DNA of 34,952 nt from Candidatus Altimarinota bacterium. Its GTDB lineage: Bacteria; Patescibacteriota; Gracilibacteria; BD1-5; UBA2023. The stretch's first letter is position 1. The number at the start of each line of letters is the position of its first letter. This document shows, one piece after another, positions 19,637 to 34,952 of this stretch. The notes below the pieces were generated by a model. It was not told where the DNA came from and did not search any database. It saw only the letters and a list, made by a program, of their open reading frames with translations. Location: contig SSGK01000012.1 in the NCBI GenBank assembly GCA_008015855.1, positions 1 to 34,952 of the forward strand, in the 5' to 3' direction. The position numbers and the translations under genes were made by a program.

Positions 19637-19666
19637 AAAAAATCAGGATTAATCCTGATTTTTTTT
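19635..19666. terminator. Perfect 32-nt palindrome serving as a bidirectional terminator between convergent ftsH and mutY.
   Basis: The sequence is aaaaaaaatcaggatt|aatcctgatttttttt. An A-run and a T-run flank the stem. The ftsH stop (19634-19636) and the mutY stop (19649-19651) both lie at or inside it. Confidence 0.75.
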
Positions 19667-20683
19667 ATATTGCTTTAAGATGTTTTGAATCTCTTTATCT
19701 TTTCTAAATCTTGCAAATTTGTGAGTTCCGGTCTGTATTTGAGCGTTACACGCGATATAAGGGTCCCCTTTATTATCGAGCCATTTATGATGTACCGGAC
19801 GAACTGATACCTCGAGTTCATATGTTTCCCGAAAATAGGATTGTACTCATTTTCGAATATCTGTTCATTCGAGGGGATTGAGAATAAAGGGTGTGTATTT
19901 TTCTATGTCTTTAGAAAAATATTCTCTATGATTTTCATGAAGAATAACGACAACTTTTGCATCCTGGAGTGGGAAATATATTTTTTTAACTTCTGCCATC
20001 TCTTCTTTTATTCATTCTGTTGTATAGAATAGGCTCTCCTTTAAAGGATATTCCTCCCAATTTATAAGGGTTTTATTGTTTACATCGATGATACTTGAAA
20101 AATCCATAAATGCCCCATTGATAATGGGTATATAGATTTGATTTTCCTTCTTTTTAAAAAATTGTTGAAAATCATAAGTAATCCCTTGCTTTATTTCCTT
20201 TGTTAATTTATTAAATCTGCTTCCAGTATAGTAGCGTGCAAATATTTTTTCTATATTGGTATCCCATGCAATTACTGGATTTCCTAATGCAAATGAGAGA
20301 ATAGCATTGGCTGTATATTCTCAGATTCATGGAAGTTTTATGAGTTCATCTTTTGTTTTTGGGAACACTCCATGGAACTCTTCTGATATAATTTTTGCAG
20401 TTTTTAGTAAATTTCTTGCACGAGAATAATAACCAAGTCATTGATAATAAGGAAAAAACTCATCATAGGATGCTTTTGCAAGGCAATGAATATTCGGATA
20501 TGCTTGAGTAATTCAGTTAAAGTATTCTATAACGCGTGACACCTGCGTTTGTTGGAGAAAGATTTCAGATAACCAAACATAATAACATCGTTGTTCTTCT
20601 GAATAATGTTCTAATCATCGCCAAGGAAGTGTTTTTCTTCCATTTATTTCATACCAGGAGAGAATTGTTTGAAATGGGAACAT
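19649..20683 (-). CDS. mutY: A/G-specific adenine DNA glycosylase MutY (344 aa) that lacks the four Fe-S cluster cysteines.
   Basis: Minus-strand translation gives ILSWYEINGRKTLPWR, catalytic-Glu motif VWLSEIFLQQTQV, YQGLGYYSRARNL, helix-hairpin-helix LPGIGEYTANAI (20321-20335, both Gly being TGA), catalytic-Asp motif AWDTNIEKIF, and a C-terminal MutT-like domain. I checked every in-frame triplet and found no TAA or TAG, and 8 TGA. An alternative in-frame ATG at 20731 would add 16 aa. Confidence 0.9.
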
Positions 20684-20766
20684 GAGGATAAAATTATTGA
20701 TTGGTTTGATTGATTTAATATTTTTTTTCATACAATGGTGAGTATATAATTTCTTCCCATTGGTAT

Positions 20767-23700
20767 ATGAAAAAAATATTTCAGTACTTTCTTGTTTTTA
20801 TTTGATTTATATCTGTAATTACATTAGGGGTGTATGCTCTTGATGTTCAGTCAAAGACGCTTACAACCGTTGTATCAGACGGTTATTATAGGGAAGGAAG
20901 CTCTTGGCGTTTTATAGTTTCTGAACCAAGACCATTTCTTGGGATTATTCCAGTTCAGGTAACAAAGAATTGTACTGATTTAAAGGATGTTGCATGTGCA
21001 TTACTCGATATTGATGCTATTCAAAAGAGTATAAAAATCAATTGACTTATTCAGAAGGAGCTCCCTAAGGGGATATCTGCTTCCCTTACGAATACCTATA
21101 CATTTATTTTGAATATTTTCCCTGAAGCAAATATTCGTGATGGTGATGAAATTCATGTAGATGTTGGAATTTATAACTCTCTTCAGAAAACAGGATACAA
21201 ATTAGCCCAAGATATAATTCTTGTGTACCGTAAAAATGATCCGATTCTTACAATTGATTCCATTTGAATACCGAAAAACAAAGAATATAGAGTAGTTGCT
21301 GAAGGTTTTCGTTCAACCAATATCCTTACAACGATAGATTTTTACACTCTACAAAGAAATGACCTTGGCCAGTGTAGTTTGGAATCTTCCAGGGATTTTC
21401 AGAATGCTTCTTTTGAAGTAACCGAGGCATTAAATGAAGGAATGAAATCAACTGCATACATTAAGATTCAATCACCAATTCAATATAATGCAGAATGTCT
21501 ATTTGCTTCAATAAATGGTGAAATGGCATTGGTGGAGAATATGACGATACCCGAGTTTACTGTATCTTGAGAGGTGTGAGTTCAGCTCTCCCCAGAACTT
21601 GATATGAAAACAGAGGTGACATTTTCATTCTCATCCCCCTTATTTATCGAGAGTGGTTCGGTAAATTCAGAAGAATTTATTGATAATCGAACGAAGGCAA
21701 AAGTTGAATTTTTGAAGCATCTTTCAATTTCTTCTTGAATTGAAGCAAAGATAGATGATTTGGTATTATATCCTAAGAAGGCAATACTTCTTTTACCACT
21801 TTTAGCTGATAAAAAATATTCATTTTCTCTTGATGAATTGGAAGATATATATGGTCAGATTACTTCTCTGGATTTTCCTGTGCAAGTAAAAAGAGAACCG
21901 TATCTTTCTGTAAAGACAAAAGAGCGATATCATACCTTCTCAAAACTGCAAAATCCTGAGTTCCAATTATATTCTTACTGAATAGGAACAGGATCTCAGG
22001 AGATTTCTGTTTGTCGAGTTTCTTTGGATAACTTTTCTCGTTTGGAACAGATATATGATGTTGGGAAGAAGGGTGATTCATGAATACTCTACAGTATTCT
22101 TTCTTCATCTTGATCAGGGGTATATGGTTGTGAAAAAACAATTCTTTCTATTCCAGAAGGAAGTTATTCATATAAATTCACGCTTCAAGATGTTCTAAAA
22201 AAGAAGGAAGTTGGTCAATATGTTCTCTTCTTTAGTAAGATCGAGGATATTACAAAGGCTCAAAACTTTGTAAAACCTATTCTATTCTCCATTTTAGATA
22301 CGAATATTGTCATGAAAGTATCACAAGAAGGTGATTCACTCTTTCTTGTAACGGATATCTATACCTGAAAACCGATGAAGGATCAGGAGATAATGGTATA
22401 TCAAAATATATCTCGTTCCGTTGAGAGAACGTGGAATTCTCAAAAAGGAATGTATGATCTAAAATATATTCCACTTGCGGAAAAAAGATTTTCGACATGA
22501 GTTTATATCTGAAAAACCAATAATGAAGGGTTTCTTCAGGTGAATCTAAAAAATTATATAAAAGATGGTGATCCATATAGTTTAACATTTGAAGATTGGT
22601 GGGGATCTCAAGAAGATGGATCATATCGTTCATTTGTGGCCGTTGTTCGATCTGACTCTCATTTTTGATTTGTAGTAAGTACCTGGAATGATGGAATCGC
22701 TCCTTGGAATTTTTGATTTGATACATCGGACACTCGTTATTATTATGGATCACTCCAGCGTTATAATGCATATATACATACAGATAGAATGCTGTATCTT
22801 CCTGGTGAAGAGGTATACATCCATGGAATATTGCGTGAAAATAATGGAAAATTAGTGGTTCCAAAGAATAAGAATTATACCGTTACGGTTACTGATTCAT
22901 TCTGAAAAACCCTTTCTTCTCAGGCTGTTCAGATAAATGAATTTGGAAGTTTCTCTGTAAAATCTTCATTACCAAAGGAGGCTGATATGGGAACTTATAC
23001 CGTTCAGCTGATTGGTGAAACTCCTGATACTTCTTATATTCCAGGGGGATATACTAACTTTCAGGTGGAAATTTTTAAAAATCCAACATTTCAAATTACG
23101 GTTGATGCTGAGTGAGTTGAACTCGATAATGGGATTATAACTGTTAAGAAAGAGGCAAATAAAGATGTTTCAAATTGGTGGTATGAGTCTGTTTACAATG
23201 GTGCATTTACTCTCAACGCAAAAGTGCTTGCACGATACTATAATGGAGCAATATTAAAGAATGCCAATTTTTCATATAAGATTTTAAGAAAAGAGTATTG
23301 GGGTGATAATTATTGGGCGGAATGTTTCTGGTGATGTTATTACGAATGAAATACAGAATTTTATACCGAATGAGTTTGAAGACTTGATGGGGATGGCTAT
23401 GGAATAATACGAACTCCTGTAGATTTTACTTCGTTTTATGCAGACTATAAATATATTATCGAGGTAACGGTAGTTGATCCACTTACCGGCGAGACTATTA
23501 CGAGCGCCTGAAATCTTATTGTAAAACTTCCCGCTGAAATAAAGGAATACAATCCAGCGAGTATTGCAAATGTTGTTCCTGATAGGAAATTTATTTCAGC
23601 TTGAGATGTATTTCGTGCTTGAATACGATTTAATGATACCCCATGGAAGCTTGGCTATAACAATAAATATGAATATAAGATTGTTGCAAAGCAGTATACA

Positions 23701-26700
23701 AATCGAATCATTCAGGATGTTCGATGAGTTTCTCGTTCTGTTTTAAAAGAAGAGGATACTGTTATTTCTTCTGGTGTTCTTACTTCAACTGGAAGATTAC
23801 TTACCCAATCAGGCATTCTTATTTTTACTGGTAAATATCAAAATTCAGGGGAGTATAATCTGGTTATTCAACCGATTTGATATTCTGGATCTGATGAAAC
23901 AAGAATATCTCGCACAGCCTTTTACGTGTATGGAACCGGAAATGCAAAAAATCCTATTATTGATGATAATAAGATACATGTATTTACCGAAAAGCCAGTA
24001 TATAAGCTCGGAGAAACATGAAAGATTCTTGTTCGACTTCCATTTAATCAAGGGAAGATATTGCTTACAACTGAGAAATGAGGGGTTATTGATAAAAAAT
24101 ATATCGATGTTACATCCAATCTCTTTATTCATGAATTTCAGGTTGATGAATCATATTTCCCAAATGCATACATAAGTGTTGTTGCTTTAGAGACTATTTC
24201 AAATTGAGATTCAAAAACAATTACAAGAAATCCAACCTATAGAGTAGGTTATGCTGAAGTGGTGGTTGATCAATCAGAGAAACTTGGAACTATTGCGATA
24301 TCTCCGGATAAAAATGATTATAAGGTAGGGGAAAATGTTAATATATCTCTTGCTCTCAAGAATAAAAAGTGAGAGGGGATAAAAGGAGAATTTGCTGTTA
24401 TGGTGATTGATGATAGTCTTATCTCTCTTCTTGGTAATATTGACCTTGATATTTTGCCAAAGTTTTATCAAAAAGTTGGACTTTGAATCCATACCGCACT
24501 TTCACTCTTGTGAATGGAAGAGAACTTTTATTTTTCTCGTAAATGAATTGCTGGTGGAAGTGGAGGAAAATGATGAGATTGAATTGTTTCAACGAGAACA
24601 ATCTTTAAAAATACAGCATACTATAATCCATCTGTTATTACTGATGAGAAGTGATATGCAAAAGTAAATTTTACACTTCCAGATAATATAACAAACTACC
24701 GAATTATTGTTATTGCCAATACGAAGGATTCAACTTTTGCAGTTGGCGAAAAGATGATTCATGTTCGTAAGGATATTGTTGCCACAGCACATGCACCGTA
24801 TATTGTGAGAAATGGTGATAGATTTGTTGTATCTGCTTCTATTTTTAATAACACGAAGACCATTCAATCACTTATTGTTGCCTTTGAAGCAAATCCTCTT
24901 GATATACAAGGATCGAATGAGCAGAAAATAACTCTCGAACCTGGAAAGACATTATCAGTAGATTTTCCAGCATCAGTAGATAAAAAATCAAAGGCAGTAA
25001 AACTTTCATATGTCATTCGAGTGAAAAATATGAGCTGAATAACCCTTGATGCCATTGAACAAAAAATTGATTATGTACTTGATCCAATTCTTATAGAGCG
25101 TTATCAGCAAAACATCATTCTTACAGGATCTAAAATCATTCCTATTCCACTTGATAAATCGAATGTAAATGAGAATCAGAGTACATTTTCGCTTCGAATA
25201 AGTCCAACATTTCTCCCTTCCATGGAAGATGTTCTTCAATCACTCAAAATGTACCCATATGGTTGTATAGAACAAACGACTTCTTCAACTTTGCCGAATG
25301 CACTTCTTCTCGCAGTATCGAATCTCATAGATACGACAAAATTTTCACCTGAGGATTTAAGAGCAAATGTGGCAGCATGAGTTAAAAGAATTGCATGAAT
25401 GCAAACAGATATTGGTGGATTTTCATATTGGCCAGGAGATACTGTTACAAACTCTCAAATAACTCCTTATGTAGTAAGAAGTCTTATTGCCATGAGTGAA
25501 TTGTGAGCCGATGTTCCAAGAGAAATAATTGACCGCTCTATGAGTTATTTGGAGTCGAATATTTCTGCATATGCTGATAATAATGAAAAGGCAGAACTTT
25601 TTTGGACACTTGCACGAGCGAAAAATAATAAGGCAAAAGTGGTAGCGGATTCGATTGATTCAAATACACTTACGCTTCATTCCTTGTTAGCTTATACATA
25701 TGGAATGCACTATCTCGATCAACAAAAAATTATAAAATTTGATATTCGTTTGATTGATAGAATCCGTGCAGAATTAAAGAAAACAAAACAAAGTGAGTAT
25801 AATTGGTATTATTGGGATCTTCTTGCTGATAAAGCTCTTTTTGCAAGTCTTCTTATAGATAGAACGGGCTATTTTAATGAGGCAGAAGGGATACTTCGTG
25901 AACTTGCGAAAAATGATTGGGATAGTTACTATTATTCGACACAAACGAAGTATCAGGTGTTCCTCGCGTTTTTTAAACACGCACAGAAGATAAAGCAACT
26001 TCCAACCACTGAGGTAACCGTGAAGTATGGTGCATATCAGTGAGTGCTTACTATTTGAGGAAATAAATTGGTACATTCTCTTGAGGTTCCATTTGCTGAT
26101 ATTGGAAATGAATTAAATTTTTCATTTCGATCACAGTATCCAATATATGCAAATATTACCCATTCTCTTTATCCAGCTGACCCATATGCTATTACCAAGA
26201 AGGATAATGGTGTTAAGATTTCCCGTACTCTCTTCTCGGTTGATGAGGAAGCATGAGTGTTTGTGAGTGGAGAAGGGACATATAATCAAGAAATTCAATA
26301 CCTTCATGTTACCCCTGTAAATGATAAGGTGATTCATAAGTGAAAACTTTATAAAGTGGTTATCGAGGCGAATATTCCAACAAAGAAGGATATGAACTGG
26401 ACAAATTTTGTTCTTGAAGATTTCTTTCCTGGTTGATTCCGACCAATTAATAAGGTATTTCATTCCGCAGATTCTCTTCTTGGTGCGACTTCCAATATGT
26501 TCTATTCTACCCAAAATAAAATAGATAGAATACTCGCACATGCTCCTTGGTGATATGGTGATAGCGTGCACTATGAGTATTATTTCCGTCCAGAGTTTGA
26601 AGGAAATTTTATATGGCCTCCTGCTACTGGTTATTTCATGTATAATCCATCTATTATGTGATTTACAGAGTATGAATCACTGACAGTAAAAAAGAATTAG
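20767..26700 (+). CDS. Bacterial alpha-2-macroglobulin family thioester protein (1,977 aa) with an N-terminal signal or anchor.
   Basis: Phase 1 is open from ATG 20767 to TAG 26698-26700 with TGA as sense. The thioester motif MYPYGCIEQT places CIEQ at 25264-25275. MG-domain signatures seen are STWNDGIAPWNF, HTDRMLYLPGEEVYIHGI, INEFGSFSVKSSLPKEADMGTYTV, FQVEIFKNPTF and TAYYNPSVITDEKGYAKVNFTLPDNITNYRIIVIA. The N-terminus MKKIFQYFLVFIGFISVITLGVYA/LD has no lipobox Cys. Confidence 0.9.
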
Positions 26701-26712
26701 TCGTGAACTTTT

Positions 26713-26751
26713 TTGACATCTTTTTGAAACCAATTAGTATGTATCTATAAC
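26713..26751 (+). promoter_or_regulatory. Candidate promoter(s) for the nrdR-priA' unit.
   Basis: One option is TTGACA (26713-26718), a 16-nt spacer and TAGTAT (26735-26740). The other is TTGAAA (26724-26729), a 16-nt spacer and TATAAC (26746-26751). Both lie just upstream of ATG 26761. Pattern match only. Confidence 0.35.
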
Positions 26752-26760
26752 TTTTTTTAT

Positions 26761-27207
26761 ATGAAATGTCCAAAGTGTAAAAATCTTGATACAAAGGTAA
26801 TTGATTCTCGTATGACAGAGGATTGAAAGGCAGTAAGAAGAAGACGAGAATGTGAAAAATGCTGAGCTCGTTTTACAACATTTGAACGACTTGAATTCGT
26901 TTCATTTATGGTTACTAAGTCTTCTGGTGAATCGGAACAATATGATCGGACGAAGGTAGTAAATTCTATGATGAAGGCATTGGTAAAGAGAAAATTCAAT
27001 CCAGATAAGATAGAGCAGATAATAAATACCCTTGAAACTGATTGGGCTCAAAACAAACAAGGGATCACTTCAAAGCGAATTGGACGTGATATTCTGCGAA
27101 AGCTTCGAGACTTGGATGAAGTTGCCTTTCTTCGGTATGCATCAATCTATCATAACCATGAAAATGTAGCAGAATTTATTAAATTTCTTGAGGAAGAATT
27201 GTGATAA
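26761..27207 (+). CDS. nrdR: Transcriptional repressor NrdR (zinc ribbon plus ATP-cone).
   Basis: The protein begins [46 protein letters not shown], followed by an ATP-cone-like C-terminal half. Under code 25 the ORF reads through TGA 27202-27204 to TAA 27205-27207. Confidence 0.93.
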
Positions 27208-28205
27208 AACAATCGTCGGATACATTACATCAAACAATCACTATTATTAATCTCTCTAATACAAAACTTCAGGGTGATTATATTTCATATGAGCTTCTGC
27301 AAACCATTACCCAAACAATTGAAAAATGATGAAAGGTTCTCCTTTTTTTCAATAGAAGAGGGGAATATAGGAGCATCTCATGTCCTGATTGTTCGAACCG
27401 ATTATTATGCCCCTATTGTAATATCCCTCTTTCCTATCATTCATTTCCCTCTAAGAAGTGTATTTGTCACCAGTGTAACTATATAGAGCCCTTTCATCCG
27501 ACGTGTAAAAAGTGTGGATCCAATACAATGATTTTCTCTTGAGTTGGTATTCAGAAAATTGAGGAAATTCTTGTTCGTCATTTTCCATGAAAATCTATTC
27601 TCCGAGTAGATTCAGATGCTCTGATACATGATTCTCAGTTACTAAGCTCTATTGATTCTTCTGATATTATTCTCGGAACAACCCTTGCCACCTCCCTTAT
27701 TCATAAGGATATTCAATTGGTTGCAAGTCTTCTCTTTGAAAGTGAATTCTCTATTCCTGAATATACCATAGAAGAAGATGTTTATATACGCGCAAATTTT
27801 TATATTCGACAAGGGATTCCATTTTTTATTCAAACTTTTATACCATCGCATCCCTTATTGGATATGATACTTAATGGAAACTATAAGGAGTATATGAAGT
27901 ATTTAATGAATGAAAGAAAGAGCTTCTGATATCCTCCATTTTGAAAACTTCTTTATATTTGGGTGAAAGATTCAAAAAAAGAGAAGGTCCAAGATATTAT
28001 TTATAAACTCGCCAACAAGCTCGATATTCTTCAGACTGAACATAACTTCTCTCTCTTCTTTTCGTATGATAAGGATATATGGGATCGATATATGGATGAG
28101 TGGCGACAGAAAATTGTTATTAAATGACCTGATGCTGAAAAAATGCTTACTTTTTTCCACTCAGAAATTATTAAAAATCGAAATGTCTTTCTGGAACGAA
28201 AATAA
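27201..28205 (+). CDS. priA: PriA-like protein comprising only the C-terminal half of PriA: helicase lobe 2 remnant, Cys-rich zinc region and C-terminal domain (334 aa). The N-terminal DNA-binding domains and the Walker A/B lobe are absent.
   Basis: VLLFFNRRGEYRSISCPDCSNRLLCPYCNIPLSYHSFPSKKCICHQCNYIEPFHPTCKKCGS matches the PriA CRR. It continues GVGIQKIEEILVRHFP, RVDSD and IILGTTLA. Phase 3 opens only after TAA 27180-27182 and the first usable start is GTG 27201, which overlaps the nrdR end. The stop is TAA 28203-28205. The helicase motif V/VI positions are degenerate (GTTLATSLIHKD; FYIRQG in place of QVAGRAGR). Confidence 0.75.
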
Positions 28206-29552: not shown

Positions 29553-31448
29553 ATGAAAAAAGAAAAAAATGAACATATTGAGAAAATTCTTTCAACACTT
29601 CCCACTTCTCCATGAGTATATCAGATGAAGGATAGCAAAGGAGGTGTTTTATACGTAGGGAAAAGTGTTAATCTTAAATCGAGAGTTTCCTCTTATTTTC
29701 GTGAAAATGCTGATTTGAATCCAGCAAAAAAACAAATGGTTACGAAGGTGAGGGATATTGAGATTATTATCTGCCAGACAGAAGTAGAAGCGCTGGTACT
29801 TGAGACCAATCTTATAAAACATCTTTCTCCAAAATATAATATTCTTATGAAGGATGATAAGAATCTCACCTATATAAAAATTACTTCATGAATTATTCCA
29901 GAGATTCTAAAGTCTCGTAAAAAAATCAATGATGGTTGAGTATACTACTGACCCTATACACAATGAGCTGATATACATGAGAATATTAAAAATCTTAAGC
30001 GAATATTTAAGATTCGAAATTGCAAGCTTTTATTTCAAAAGCAATGAAAAGATTTTTCTATCTTTTGAGCAGCGAAGAAGGGTATTCCGTGTATGGATTA
30101 TTATATTGGAATTTGCCCTGGTCCTTGTCAGTGAACGGATGATACCATTCAGGAGCATGCCGATAATGTTATGAACCTCAGAAAGTTTCTTGATGGAGGA
30201 AATAAAGAAATAATTTCTCGATTGGAATCAAAAATGAGGGATTATGCGAAAAATCTTGAGTTCGAAAAGGCGGGGAAACTAAAAAGTCAGATAGATGCTA
30301 TGAAAGTTCTTTCAGAAAGACAGATAGCTCGTGATGTTCTCCCTTGAAATCATGATATACTGGCGATTTTACAGAATTATGGAAAGGTATTTGTTTGACT
30401 CTTGCAGATTCGTTCTGGAAAAATGATTGGGGTCTTTCGAACATCGATTGAATTGAATGGGGAAGAATATGATAGAATTATTGTTCAGTTTCTTGCGAGG
30501 CAATACATGGAAGGTGAAACAGATTATCCGGATAATCTGTTTATCACTGAAGATATTCAGGATCCATCCTTAATTGCATTCTTTCATGATAAAAATATTA
30601 CACTCAAATCAGCGGATATTTGAGTTCAAAAGGAACTCTATGATTTTACGATGAATCAGGTTCGAGAATATGCATATAAATCAGAACTTCAAAGCTTAGA
30701 ACAAAAGACTCTGACACGAGAGCATATGACCTCGATTCTAACTGAGCTATGATACGTTGTTCCAAAAAAATGAGAAATTCATTTTGAATGCTACGATATA
30801 TCTCATACTCATGGGCAGTTTACTATCGCCTCACGTGTTCATATGTTAAATGGAAAGATGGAGAATTCTCTCTATAGAAAGTATAAAATTAAGACACTTG
30901 CCGCCTGAGATATTGATGACTTTGCTTCTCATAAGGAGGTAATGGAACGAAGAACTATAGAGGGCTTAACCGAATGAAATTTTCCAAATCTTATCCTGAT
31001 TGATGGAGGAAAATGACAACTTTCATCCGCACTCCAATGAGCAAAAGAATGAGCTTATAAATATTCACTGGAGCAGTGACTTGATATTAATGAGGTTATG
31101 CTTCGTCTTCCTTCCTTTGCGAGCATTGCGAAACGGGAAGAAGAAATATTTGTTCCTCATAAAAAGGAATCTATTCTTTTTGGAAAATGAACTCCTGAAT
31201 TAATGATACTTCAGAAACTTCGAGATGAATCTCATCGATTTGCAATTACCGCTAACCGTTCATCGAGAACAAAAGCCATGAAGAAAAATATTCTGGAAGA
31301 AATCCCAGGTAGATGACCAATAACAAGAAAAAAACTCCTTCGAATTGCAGGAAGTATCGAGAATCTGTCTTCTCTTTCATATGAAGAGATTATGAAGGTG
31401 TGCACTGCATCTCAATATATCTCCCTTCGCGAACATTGAATTATTTAA
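29553..31448 (+). CDS. uvrC: Excinuclease ABC subunit C (UvrC, 631 aa).
   Basis: GIY-YIG domain: [34 protein letters not shown] (P-G-V-Y at 29610-29621, with Gly encoded by TGA). Cys motif: CMDYYIGICPGPC. UVR domain: AKNLEFEKAGKLKSQIDAM. Endonuclease domain: ECYDISHTHGQ, LILIDGGKGQL, IAKREEEIF and LRDESHRFAI. C-terminal HhH: IPGRGPITRKKLL. Phase 3 is continuous to TAA 31446-31448. Confidence 0.93.
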
Positions 31449-31459
31449 TCTCCATTTTT

Positions 31460-32419
31460 ATGTATATCCTTGCTTTTGAAACATCATGTGATGATACATC
31501 CGTAGCATTGTTTCAAGATACTACCTGTATAGCTCTTTCTACGCGAACACAGATTGAACATGAAATCACTTGAGGGGTAGTACCAGAGGTGGCTGCACGC
31601 CTCCATGCAAATGCTATTTTTCCATGTATTGAGGATGTTGTAAGGGATGCAGGAATATGATTGGATTGAATTGATTATATCGCATGCACAAAACAACCAG
31701 GACTTCTTCCATCACTTTTAACTGGTATGACGGTTGCTAAGACGCTCGCAAATTCTCTCGACAAACCGCTTATTTGGGTAGACCATATTGAGTGACATAT
31801 TTTTGCTAATCTACTTGAGAGAAGTGAAAGTGAGATACCATTTCCGAGTATTGTCCTTACAGTATCTGGAGGACACAATGAACTCTATATTTGGAAGTCA
31901 TTGTTTGATATGGAGAAAATCTGAGAAACCCTTGATGATGCTGCATGAGAAGCCTTTGATAAGGTTGCAAAGATGCTCGGGTGCTGATTCCCTGGTGGTC
32001 CTATTATTGCGAAGCTTGCACAATCAGAGACAACAGGCTATGAATGATTATTTCCAATTGTTACATTAGAAAAAGATTCCCTTAATTTTTCATTCTCATG
32101 ATTGAAAACTGCCGTAAAACGAGAAGTAGATAAGAAAATATATAGTGATTCAAAGATTGCCTTTGAGTTTGAAGAAGCAGTGATTCGAACACTGGTAAAG
32201 AAGCTTTTTTTGGCAGCAGAAAAACATAACATCAAAACTATTTGTCTTGCTGGATGAGTGAGTGCCAATAAAAAATTAAAAGATTGTATCTCTCATGAGG
32301 CAGAAAAACGAGGTATGCAATTTATTTCCCCAAAAAAGCCCGTATATTCTCAAGACAATGCTGCTATGATTGGAATCCGAGCATATTATGGAATTGTATC
32401 AGGGAGAGTGGACAATTAG
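31460..32419 (+). CDS. tsaD: tRNA N6-adenosine threonylcarbamoyltransferase TsaD (Kae1/Gcp family, 319 aa).
   Basis: Motifs present are ILAFETSCDDTSVAL, GGVVPEVAARLH (31571-), TKQPGLLPSLLTG, VDHIEGHIFA, LTVSGGHNELY, GETLDDAAGEAFDKVAKMLG, FPGGP, FSFSGLKTA, LAGGVSANKKL and DNAAMIG. Many of these invariant Gly residues are encoded by TGA. The stop is TAG 32417-32419. Confidence 0.95.
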
Positions 32420-34243: not shown

Positions 34244-34621
34244 TTACTTGAGTTCAATAGAAGCTCCTGATTCTTCAAGTTGCTTCTTAATCTTGTCAGC
34301 TTCATCCTTGTTAACACCCTTCTTGATATCACCACCATTGTCAGCAAGAGCCTTAGCTTCAGCAAGACCAAGTCCAGTGATTTCACGAATTACCTTAATA
34401 ACGGCAATCTTTTGAGCACCAGCAGATGTCATAACAACATCGAAGCTAGTCTTCTCATCATCTCCACCAGCAGCTCCAACAGCAGCAGCAACAGCTACAG
34501 GAGCAGCAGCAGAAACACCAAATTTTTCTTCCATTGCAGAAACAAGATCTGCAAGCTCTACGATAGTAAGTCCTTCAACAAGGTCCATAACCTTTTGAGC
34601 ATTTGAGCTGAGTTCAGCCAT
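34244..34621 (-). CDS. rplL: 50S ribosomal protein L7/L12.
   Basis: The 125-aa ORF is intact even under the standard code. It reads [41 protein letters not shown], an Ala-rich hinge, then [30 protein letters not shown]. Confidence 0.97.
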
Positions 34622-34740
34622 AATTATAAAAAATAGAAAATAAAAACAATTTTAGGGTCTTATTATAAGACACAATCGAGAGGGTTTAACCAGCTCGTAA
34701 TTCTCCATCTCTCAAATGAAATGGAGAACATACAAAATGA

Positions 34741-34952
34741 TTATTCAGCAGATGTTTCTTTCTTGAGATCACCAACCTTTGTAAGAGACTTTCCTTCAAG
34801 TTCTTTCTTTGCACCATCAAGAAAACGTGCAAATCCAGAAAGTGGAGACATCATAGAACCAAGAAGCTTTGCAAGGAGAACCTCACGAGAAGGGAGTCCA
34901 GCAAGTTTTGTTGTTTCTTCTGCATCCATAATACGTCCATCGAGGTAACCTC
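34741..34952 (-). CDS. rplJ: 50S ribosomal protein L10, 3' part (5' end outside the window).
   Basis: The C-terminal L10 sequence is GYLDGRIMDAEETTKLAGLPSREVLLAKLLGSMMSPLSGFARFLDGA. It lies immediately upstream of rplL in the canonical rplJL order. The stop is TAA 34741-34743. Confidence 0.9.
   Translation of the reverse strand, partial: GYLDGRIMDAEETTKLAGLPSREVLLAKLLGSMMSPLSGFARFLDGAKKELEGKSLTKVGDLKKETSAE

Follow-up and report, generated by a model that had tools for sequence, protein, structure and literature searches.

A thioester-bearing alpha-2-macroglobulin, most likely anchored by a helix, and its PBP1c-like partner in a code-25 bacterium of the Gracilibacteria

We have found that a stretch of 34,952 nucleotides from Candidatus Altimarinota bacterium (contig SSGK01000012.1 of assembly GCA_008015855.1, analysed in full and referred to here as the window) carries an intact gene for a thioester-bearing alpha-2-macroglobulin (A2M) of the bacterial type I family, and that the same genome encodes an orthologue of the class A penicillin-binding protein (PBP) that stands beside such genes in related genomes from the Candidate Phyla Radiation (CPR). 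The reading that we favour, and that we regard as probable though by no means certain, is that the protein is a type I A2M held by an N-terminal helix that would trap proteases covalently in the wall zone of the cell and be functionally tied to a PBP1c-like synthase. The usual account of bacterial A2Ms is that they defend the Gram-negative periplasm from proteases that have passed the outer membrane. A complete type I module, made up of a thioester A2M and a PBP1c-like synthase, is common in this class of ultrasmall, host-attached bacteria, and machinery for outer-membrane assembly was not found in their genomes. This suggests that the module protects wall and membrane as such, and it offers a candidate explanation, open to test, of how CPR cells that are epibiotic or predatory withstand proteolytic surroundings, whether of their own making or encountered.

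A type I alpha-2-macroglobulin native to a code-25 genome

The A2M gene occupies one uninterrupted plus-strand open reading frame of 1,977 codons under NCBI translation table 25, in which 47 in-frame TGA codons are read as glycine; under table 11 the same frame falls into pieces of at most 167 amino acids. Five Pfam models match above their curated cut-offs, namely MG2, A2M_BRD, A2M, the thioester domain (TED; residues 1485-1597) and bMG10 (residues 1848-1961; the others are placed in Table 1). The N-terminal half was not recognised by the Pfam models bMG1, bMG3, bMG5 or bMG6, and an NCBIfam scan of the protein assigned no family. The best sequence matches in the PDB are Sa-A2M of Salmonella (4u48, E 1e-25) and YfhM of E. 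coli, also called ECAM (E 7e-21), with the CLEQ of both aligned to the CIEQ of the window protein. Reading frame, motif and domains thus all agree with the first-pass annotation, made from the sequence alone, which had called a full-length thioester A2M here.

The protein was folded with AlphaFold2 (AF2) in two halves, from alignments whose first row was the window fragment and whose other rows were unmodified homologues. In the model of the C-terminal half (residues 1060-1977; mean predicted local distance difference test score, pLDDT, 80.0), macroglobulin (MG) sandwiches are accompanied by a TED that is all-helical and by an MG domain at the C-terminus. The top Foldseek matches of this half are ECAM in its native form (5a42, E 4e-49, TMq 0.52) and Sa-A2M (4u48), with CD109, A2ML1, TEP1 and C5 lower down; protease-activated forms of ECAM fit the model worse (TMq 0.36-0.37). 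The N-terminal half (model m0ebdd2612fb7, pLDDT 79.7) begins with a long helix over residues 2-30 and continues into about eight beta-sandwich domains. Its best matches are again ECAM (5a42, E 1.7e-27) and Sa-A2M (E 2e-26), at low global TM-scores, which are to be expected because a string of such domains is poorly constrained. In both halves, then, ECAM and Sa-A2M come out best by sequence and by fold, and no loss of MG or TED integrity was seen, all five domain models scoring above cut-off and both halves folding confidently. Together, motifs and fold establish membership of the type I, thioester-bearing family of bacterial A2Ms.

Several of the residues on which a type I A2M depends are widely kept. 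The CxEQ motif is present in 54 of 55 aligned members of the clade to which the window protein belongs, and the region around it in the TED is a peak of conservation (0.67). The tyrosine that precedes GCIEQ is the equivalent of the Sa-A2M lock residue Tyr1175, and both this tyrosine, within YPYGC, and the Met-Tyr near the C-terminus, within an FMY motif of the EXMY type, are nearly invariant across the clade alignment; roles in the lock have been described for the TED tyrosine and for the EXMY and RDDR motifs (PMC4498604), of which RDDR reads NKIDR in the window protein.

A putative bait loop could also be located, as the first-pass annotation had proposed. Residues 1221-1280 (162-221 of the fragment) are the sole long stretch of the C-terminal model with pLDDT below 50 and align with the bait of ECAM and Sa-A2M; in ECAM, Arg923-Leu942 are disordered and contacts extend out to residue 963 (PMC4498604). 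The segment is rich in glycine and holds arginine and lysine (YFSRKGIAGGSGGKGGDGIVSTR), with five of its glycine codons being TGA. Within the clade its conservation reaches 0.69, where much of the protein has values of 0.3-0.5. We considered whether such conservation might be an oddity of the CPR and rejected this, given that the frame K/R-G...GGGG...R-x-F-x-x-T-A-Y-W(-N-P), with its poly-glycine core, is common to bacterial A2Ms outside the CPR; because these share the frame, we take the conservation to be a family trait around a short variable core and not an anomaly. We also note that many public entries of the clade have been translated with TGA as tryptophan (code 4) instead of glycine, which distorts the glycine-rich bait.

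Several lines of evidence show that the gene is native to its code-25 genome, as had been supposed from its in-frame TGA codons. The ratio of TGA to all glycine codons is 0.34, as compared with 0.34 in a giant surface-protein gene and 0.32 in ftsH; the GC content of 0.343 is like that of the flanking genes and is flat across the window; and every neighbouring gene needs TGA as a sense codon. These neighbours encode Der, a TraB-like protein, FtsH, a MutY-like glycosylase, NrdR, a PriA fragment, SpoU, DnaJ, UvrC, TsaD, a DsbA-like protein and an exonuclease. Synteny at the locus extends to one genome of the same genus and to three further genera of the family. Members of the A2M clade are only 29-39% identical overall, at 650-1,180 bits, and the best sequences outside it reach at most 290 bits. 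Because codon use, GC content, synteny and this similarity gap all fit a native gene, contamination and recent horizontal import from a diderm bacterium are both excluded.

Table 1. Features of the A2M gene and its surroundings, in window coordinates
Feature	Coordinates	Strand	Basis or remark
A2M coding sequence	20767..26700	+	table 25 open reading frame; Pfam A2M-family domains; PDB sequence matches
N-terminal anchor (most likely transmembrane), residues 1-30: MKK plus 22-residue hydrophobic segment, no Cys	20767..20856	+	hydropathy; AF2 helix
N-terminal array of about eight MG-type beta-sandwich domains, residues 31-1065	20857..23961	+	AF2, Foldseek, Pfam
Pfam MG2, residues 668-766, within N-terminal array	22768-23064	+	Pfam
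Bait-region domain A2M_BRD, residues 1070-1221	23974..24429	+	Pfam; aligns to Sa-A2M from residue 752
Putative bait loop, residues 1221-1280	24427..24606	+	low pLDDT; maps onto ECAM/Sa-A2M bait ~920-963 (PMC4498604)
A2M (MG9-type) domain, residues 1283-1371	24613..24879	+	Pfam
TED, all-helical, residues ~1483-1741	25213..25989	+	AF2 helices (fragment 424-682), Pfam TED_complement, Sa-A2M TED alignment
Thioester motif C1500-I-E-Q1503 in YPYGCIEQ	25264..25275	+	alignment to CLEQ of 4u48
bMG10 (MG10) domain, C-terminal	26308..26649	+	Pfam
FMY (EXMY-type) lock motif, M1958-Y1959	26638-26643	+	alignment; motif comparison
MutY-like HhH-GPD glycosylase, divergent neighbour, context only	19649..20731	-	also placed so in G109, G161, G489
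nrdR, downstream neighbour, context only	26713..27207	+	89% identical in same-genus genome
Window 3' end, continuing by colinearity into contig C15 (partner PBP at C15:683-2761, outside window)	34517..34952	.	colinearity with G489

The PBP1c-like partner and its linkage to the gene

The gene had been described as lacking a pbpC partner, with mutY and nrdR as its neighbours. The neighbours are as described, and there is indeed no PBP gene beside the A2M gene within the window, but an orthologous partner is present in the same genome on another contig (C15). This genome encodes two class A PBPs, of which the one on C15 (683-2761; 692 amino acids) has a transmembrane segment, intact GT51 and SxxK, SxN and KTG motifs, and groups (100/100) with the PBP that lies next to the A2M gene in a relative, G069 (39% identity over 683 residues), apart from the clade of housekeeping PBPs. 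A genome truly without pbpC is therefore ruled out, even though the BiPBP_C domain was found neither in this genome nor, above cut-off, in five genomes of the same family.

In G489, a genome of the same genus that is 99% complete, the A2M gene and a PBP gene of the C15 type lie on one contig (C83), on the same strand and about 8.8 kb apart. The genes there follow the order of the window as far as its last bases, and from that point the order of C15 from its first bases onward (A2M, nrdR, priA fragment, SpoU, DnaJ, UvrC, TsaD, DsbA-like, exonuclease, two small genes, PBP), with the contig break falling between the small gene at 34517-34648 and a minus-strand gene for 198 amino acids at C15:42-518. 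Because of this colinearity, we take the contig of the window (C23) and C15 to adjoin in the genome, which places the predicted partner PBP about 9 kb downstream of the A2M gene on the same strand, across the contig break. The apparent absence of pbpC is thus an artefact of assembly combined with a modest rearrangement, the A2M-PBP pair having been pulled apart by housekeeping genes in this genus.

Elsewhere in the lineage the two genes are close. A class A PBP of 660-700 amino acids lies directly beside the A2M gene in G154, G117, G147 and G069, and where an A2M and a PBP1c-like match occur on the same contig they are neighbours (estimated at 3 kb or less) in 47 of 52 genomes of the class. 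Among these close pairs the PBP gene is directly downstream on the same strand in 29, which is the arrangement of yfhM and pbpC, and upstream in 8, divergent in 7 and convergent in 3; adjacency or an operon of pbpC with a type I A2M is known to be frequent, not obligatory. At least two matches to the Transgly model are found in 99 of 117 class genomes with an A2M as against 18 of 84 without one, a count that ignores relatedness, and in a sister family there are two such matches in each of the six genomes with an A2M and one in each of the seven without. A PBP above the PBP_1c equivalog cut-off is present in 48 of the 201 class genomes. The linkage between A2M and PBP1c-like genes is therefore lineage-wide.

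Contrary to what had been implied, the A2M gene itself is no oddity of its lineage, given that an A2M was found in 117 of 201 genomes of the class (58%) and in 15% of the sampled genomes of the phylum; members of the clade carry the NCBI annotation of alpha-2-macroglobulin family protein. A quick tree of code-25 relatives resolves two deep paralogue types (A and B), of about 1,950 amino acids (the window protein and those of loci L005-L007 and L009) and about 2,200 amino acids (L004, L008, L010 and L011). The PBP1c-like proteins paired with each type form a subclade of their own. The A2M and PBP trees agree in this split, a hint that the pair may have been co-inherited. Between the window and G489, identity is 48% for the A2M, 45% for its partner PBP and 44% for the PriA fragment, compared with 89% for nrdR, 80% for the exonuclease and 71% for tsaD, which suggests that the envelope pair may evolve fast even between genomes of one genus.

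Both the occurrence of the family in this lineage and a defensive reading of it are already in the literature, and the window gene is a further member. Moreira et al. (2021) reported two giant membrane proteins with A2M domains in Vampirococcus lugosii and proposed that they protect from host proteases (PMC8080830). Zhou et al. (2022) described homologues across orders of Gracilibacteria, in Paceibacteria and in WWE3 from metagenome-assembled genomes of hydrothermal vents and read them in the same way (PMC9793634). The passages of these two papers that were consulted or searched by term hold no mention of thioester conservation, type of anchor or linkage to PBP1c.

Anchor, envelope and proposed mechanism

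The N-terminus of the window protein is hydrophobic and has no lipobox, as first noted: the Kyte-Doolittle score of a 19-residue window reaches 2.25 at residue 7, AF2 models residues 2-30 as one continuous helix, no lipobox is found in the first 45 residues, and the first cysteine is residue 69. None of the 55 clade members has a lipobox. In 49 of them the N-terminus has a hydrophobic segment of this kind, and the six members that lack the segment are truncated gene calls that start just after it. Classical lipoboxes are found in the A2M matches from outside the CPR (P0055-P0057). A GYYAY motif common to close relatives stands where the helix ends on the outer side and resembles an interfacial aromatic belt more than a signal-peptidase site. 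The helix is most likely a transmembrane anchor. Neither Lgt nor LspA was found in the genome itself, which is 70.7% complete, but both are encoded by all five same-family genomes (95-100% complete), so that an inability of the lineage to make lipoproteins is ruled out as the reason for the missing lipobox; because the machinery is there, the helix anchor is to be seen as a property of the A2M clade and not as something forced upon it. As to database entries, the public gene calls of P0002, P0007, P0027, P0029, P0034 and P0038 start past the transmembrane helix (window positions 20767-20829); that of P0002, which shares 97% identity with the window protein, misses the first 21 residues.

The envelope around this anchor appears to be monoderm-like, with peptidoglycan and no detectable outer-membrane machinery. 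Omp85/BamA (PF01103) was found in none of nine genomes of the family and in all seven diderm controls, and the description of Vampirococcus, a code-25 relative, reports a wall of Gram-positive structure (PMC8080830). Among the controls, only diderm ones have matches to the A2M Pfam model. The module is thus kept in cells in which outer-membrane machinery cannot be detected, and the space that it would protect is for this reason more aptly thought of as the wall zone of a monoderm-type cell than as a diderm periplasm.

Within such a cell, the helix would hold the A2M at the cytoplasmic membrane, its MKK end inside the cell and its body of about 1,950 residues on the outer side. From the homology to ECAM and Sa-A2M one would expect a protease to cut the bait loop (residues ~1221-1280), which is exposed, disordered and rich in Gly, Arg and Lys, and the cut would free the TED from its lock on the C-terminal MG10, in which the tyrosine of YPYGCIEQ and the Met-Tyr of FMY would take part. 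The Cys1500-Gln1503 thioester could then react with a lysine of the protease and so trap it covalently beside the membrane. Together, the A2M and the PBP1c-like class A PBP would make up a module for defence and repair of the envelope, a pairing proposed by Budd (2004) as cited in PMC4498604 and PMC5764988. Thioester formation, protease trapping, topology and the target proteases, whether of host or prey, of competitors or of the cell itself, are points that we infer by analogy with characterised A2Ms; a trap for proteases of host, prey or the cell itself remains plausible.

The closest characterised systems are the type I A2Ms ECAM/YfhM (5a42, 4ziq, 4rtd) and Sa-A2M (4u48), with which the window protein shares CxEQ within YPYGCxEQ together with the lock tyrosine, the succession of MG array, bait-region domain, A2M/MG9 domain, helical TED and C-terminal MG10 with its MY motif, what is modelled as a disordered glycine-rich bait at the homologous position, a predicted tethering to the cytoplasmic membrane and, across the lineage, the coupling to a class A PBP of PBP1c type. 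It differs from them in being some 330 residues longer and only about 20% identical, in its clade having a transmembrane helix where they have a lipobox cysteine, in belonging to a monoderm-like lineage without Omp85 whereas they work in a diderm periplasm, in a PBP gene that lies about 9 kb off and not in an operon, and in its degenerate RDDR motif. The proteins Vamp_6_203 (2,368 amino acids) and Vamp_19_245 (1,895 amino acids) of Candidatus Vampirococcus lugosii, with the homologues in Gracilibacteria, Paceibacteria and WWE3, are likened here by description only: the two sources describe a code-25 CPR epibiont, proteins comparable to the size classes of about 1,950 and 2,200 residues, a predicted membrane location and a proposal of defence (PMC8080830, PMC9793634).

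More distant comparisons are with type II A2Ms and with eukaryotic thioester proteins. Type II A2Ms (MagD of P. aeruginosa, encoded in the six-gene magABCDEF operon, and YfaS of E. coli) share the superfamily, the MG architecture and periplasmic or membrane-associated trapping, but they lack CxEQ and rely on the partners MagA, MagB and MagF (PMC5764988), whereas the window protein has CIEQ. The genes around the window A2M are housekeeping genes and include no mag-like operon. Several members of the clade have been labelled 'YfaS (alpha-2-macroglobulin family)' by the Joint Genome Institute. In eukaryotic TEDs a His or Asn about 110 residues beyond the cysteine governs how reactive the thioester is. 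Human A2M, A2ML1, CD109, insect TEP1 and C3/C4/C5 resemble the window protein in having a TED with a thioester, a ring of MG domains and a loop for bait or activation (Foldseek E 1e-35 to 1e-40), but are only about 12-14% identical, are secreted or anchored by glycosylphosphatidylinositol instead of by a helix, and have anaphylatoxin, C345C or receptor-binding domains, none of which Pfam detected in the window protein.

Alternative readings and minor observations

Several observations weigh against a helix-anchored trap tied to a PBP1c-like synthase. On the side of the partner, the best NCBIfam match of the C15 PBP is PBP_1c (TIGR02073), but its 313 bits lie below the equivalog cut-off of 494; no BiPBP_C domain was detected in the protein; and in this genome the gene is neither adjacent to the A2M gene nor in an operon with it, about ten housekeeping genes lying between. 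On the side of the A2M, the window protein has a degenerate RDDR motif (NKIDR), which close relatives keep intact, and the unusual conservation of the bait-homologous region is easier to reconcile with a specific trigger than with a broad-spectrum trap. The A2M of G069, a genome of the same taxonomic order (1,918 amino acids, L009:5289-11045), has no CxEQ anywhere and is still followed by a PBP1c-like gene on the same strand; this looks like a natural loss of the thioester. As to the anchor, a signal peptidase could in principle cleave after VYA25 and so release the protein instead of leaving it tethered. Even so, each of the alternatives weighed next, self-protection, adhesion and a structural remnant, has less support than the anchored trap.

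The best placed of them, which we nevertheless consider unlikely, keeps the mechanism and changes the target: the A2M would protect the cell from its own proteases, or from those of a lysed host or prey cell at the zone of contact, while the PBP repairs the wall. The code-25 CPR relatives are described as epibiotic predators that secrete hydrolases (PMC8080830), and a fairly conserved bait would suit a recurring, defined protease better than arbitrary foreign ones. However, no gene for a secreted protease is linked to the A2M gene in the window or in the relatives examined, and the identities of 48% for the A2M and 45% for the PBP between genomes of one genus, against 58-89% for neighbouring genes, suggest a target that is external and changing.

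It is less probable again that the protein is a complement-like covalent adhesin or a tagging protein. A giant surface-tethered protein would be in keeping with a lineage that lives attached to other cells (PMC8080830); the conservation of 0.69 in the bait-homologous loop is reminiscent of the convertase sites of C3, C4 and C5 and unlike hypervariable A2M baits; and Foldseek retrieves TEP1, CD109 and C5 at E 1e-36 to 1e-40. Nevertheless, the nearest structures and sequences are bacterial protease traps, the poly-glycine core of the loop is common to ordinary bacterial A2Ms outside the CPR, lineage-wide pairing with PBP1c is a hallmark of the type I protease-trap module, and the predicted anchor would hold the protein to the cell's own membrane, under its own wall. 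A bolder proposal, to which we give about as little credence, is that A2M and PBP1c form an ancient module of CPR cells without an outer membrane, in which the conserved loop would be cut by one specific protease and the thioester would act in the manner of complement where epibiont and host meet, for instance by bonding covalently with the surface of the host or with a defined enzyme of host or prey, and would not serve as a broad trap. If this were so, defence of the periplasm after a breach of the outer membrane would not be the essential function of the module.

We think it slightly less probable still that the protein is a structural surface protein of A2M ancestry in which the thioester does not form or does not matter. 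G069, which keeps gene and PBP neighbour without CxEQ, and the degenerate RDDR motif of the window protein would fit such a remnant, and type II bacterial A2Ms function without a thioester (PMC5764988); against it, CxEQ, the lock tyrosine and Met-Tyr have been retained in 54 of 55 sequences that are only about 30-39% identical, and conservation peaks around the thioester. Lastly, although A2Ms are classically a Gram-negative trait (PMC4498604) and the type-B paralogues of relatives lie nearer to non-CPR sequences in the unrooted quick tree, contamination or import from a diderm bacterium is, for any recent event, effectively refuted by the codon use, uniform GC content, shared locus and similarity gap set out above.

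Annotation of the gene and its partner easily goes wrong: with code 11 the frames break, the starts of several database entries are truncated, and in this genome a contig break hides the partner. With regard to the surrounding genes, that at 27201-28205 (334 amino acids), which follows nrdR, has only a weak match to the PriA zinc ribbon, and its position after A2M and nrdR is kept in G109, G161, G099 and G489; because of this, we regard nrdR and the 334-residue gene as travelling with the type-A A2M in the family. The longest reading frame of tsaD (31313-32419) overlaps the end of uvrC by 136 nucleotides, and homology with G489 begins at 31460, so the real start probably lies just after the uvrC stop. 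In G147, a gene for a Peptidase_M23 protein, a peptidoglycan endopeptidase of 665 amino acids (L011:2092-4089), is found near the A2M gene on its 3' side and may be another wall-related neighbour.

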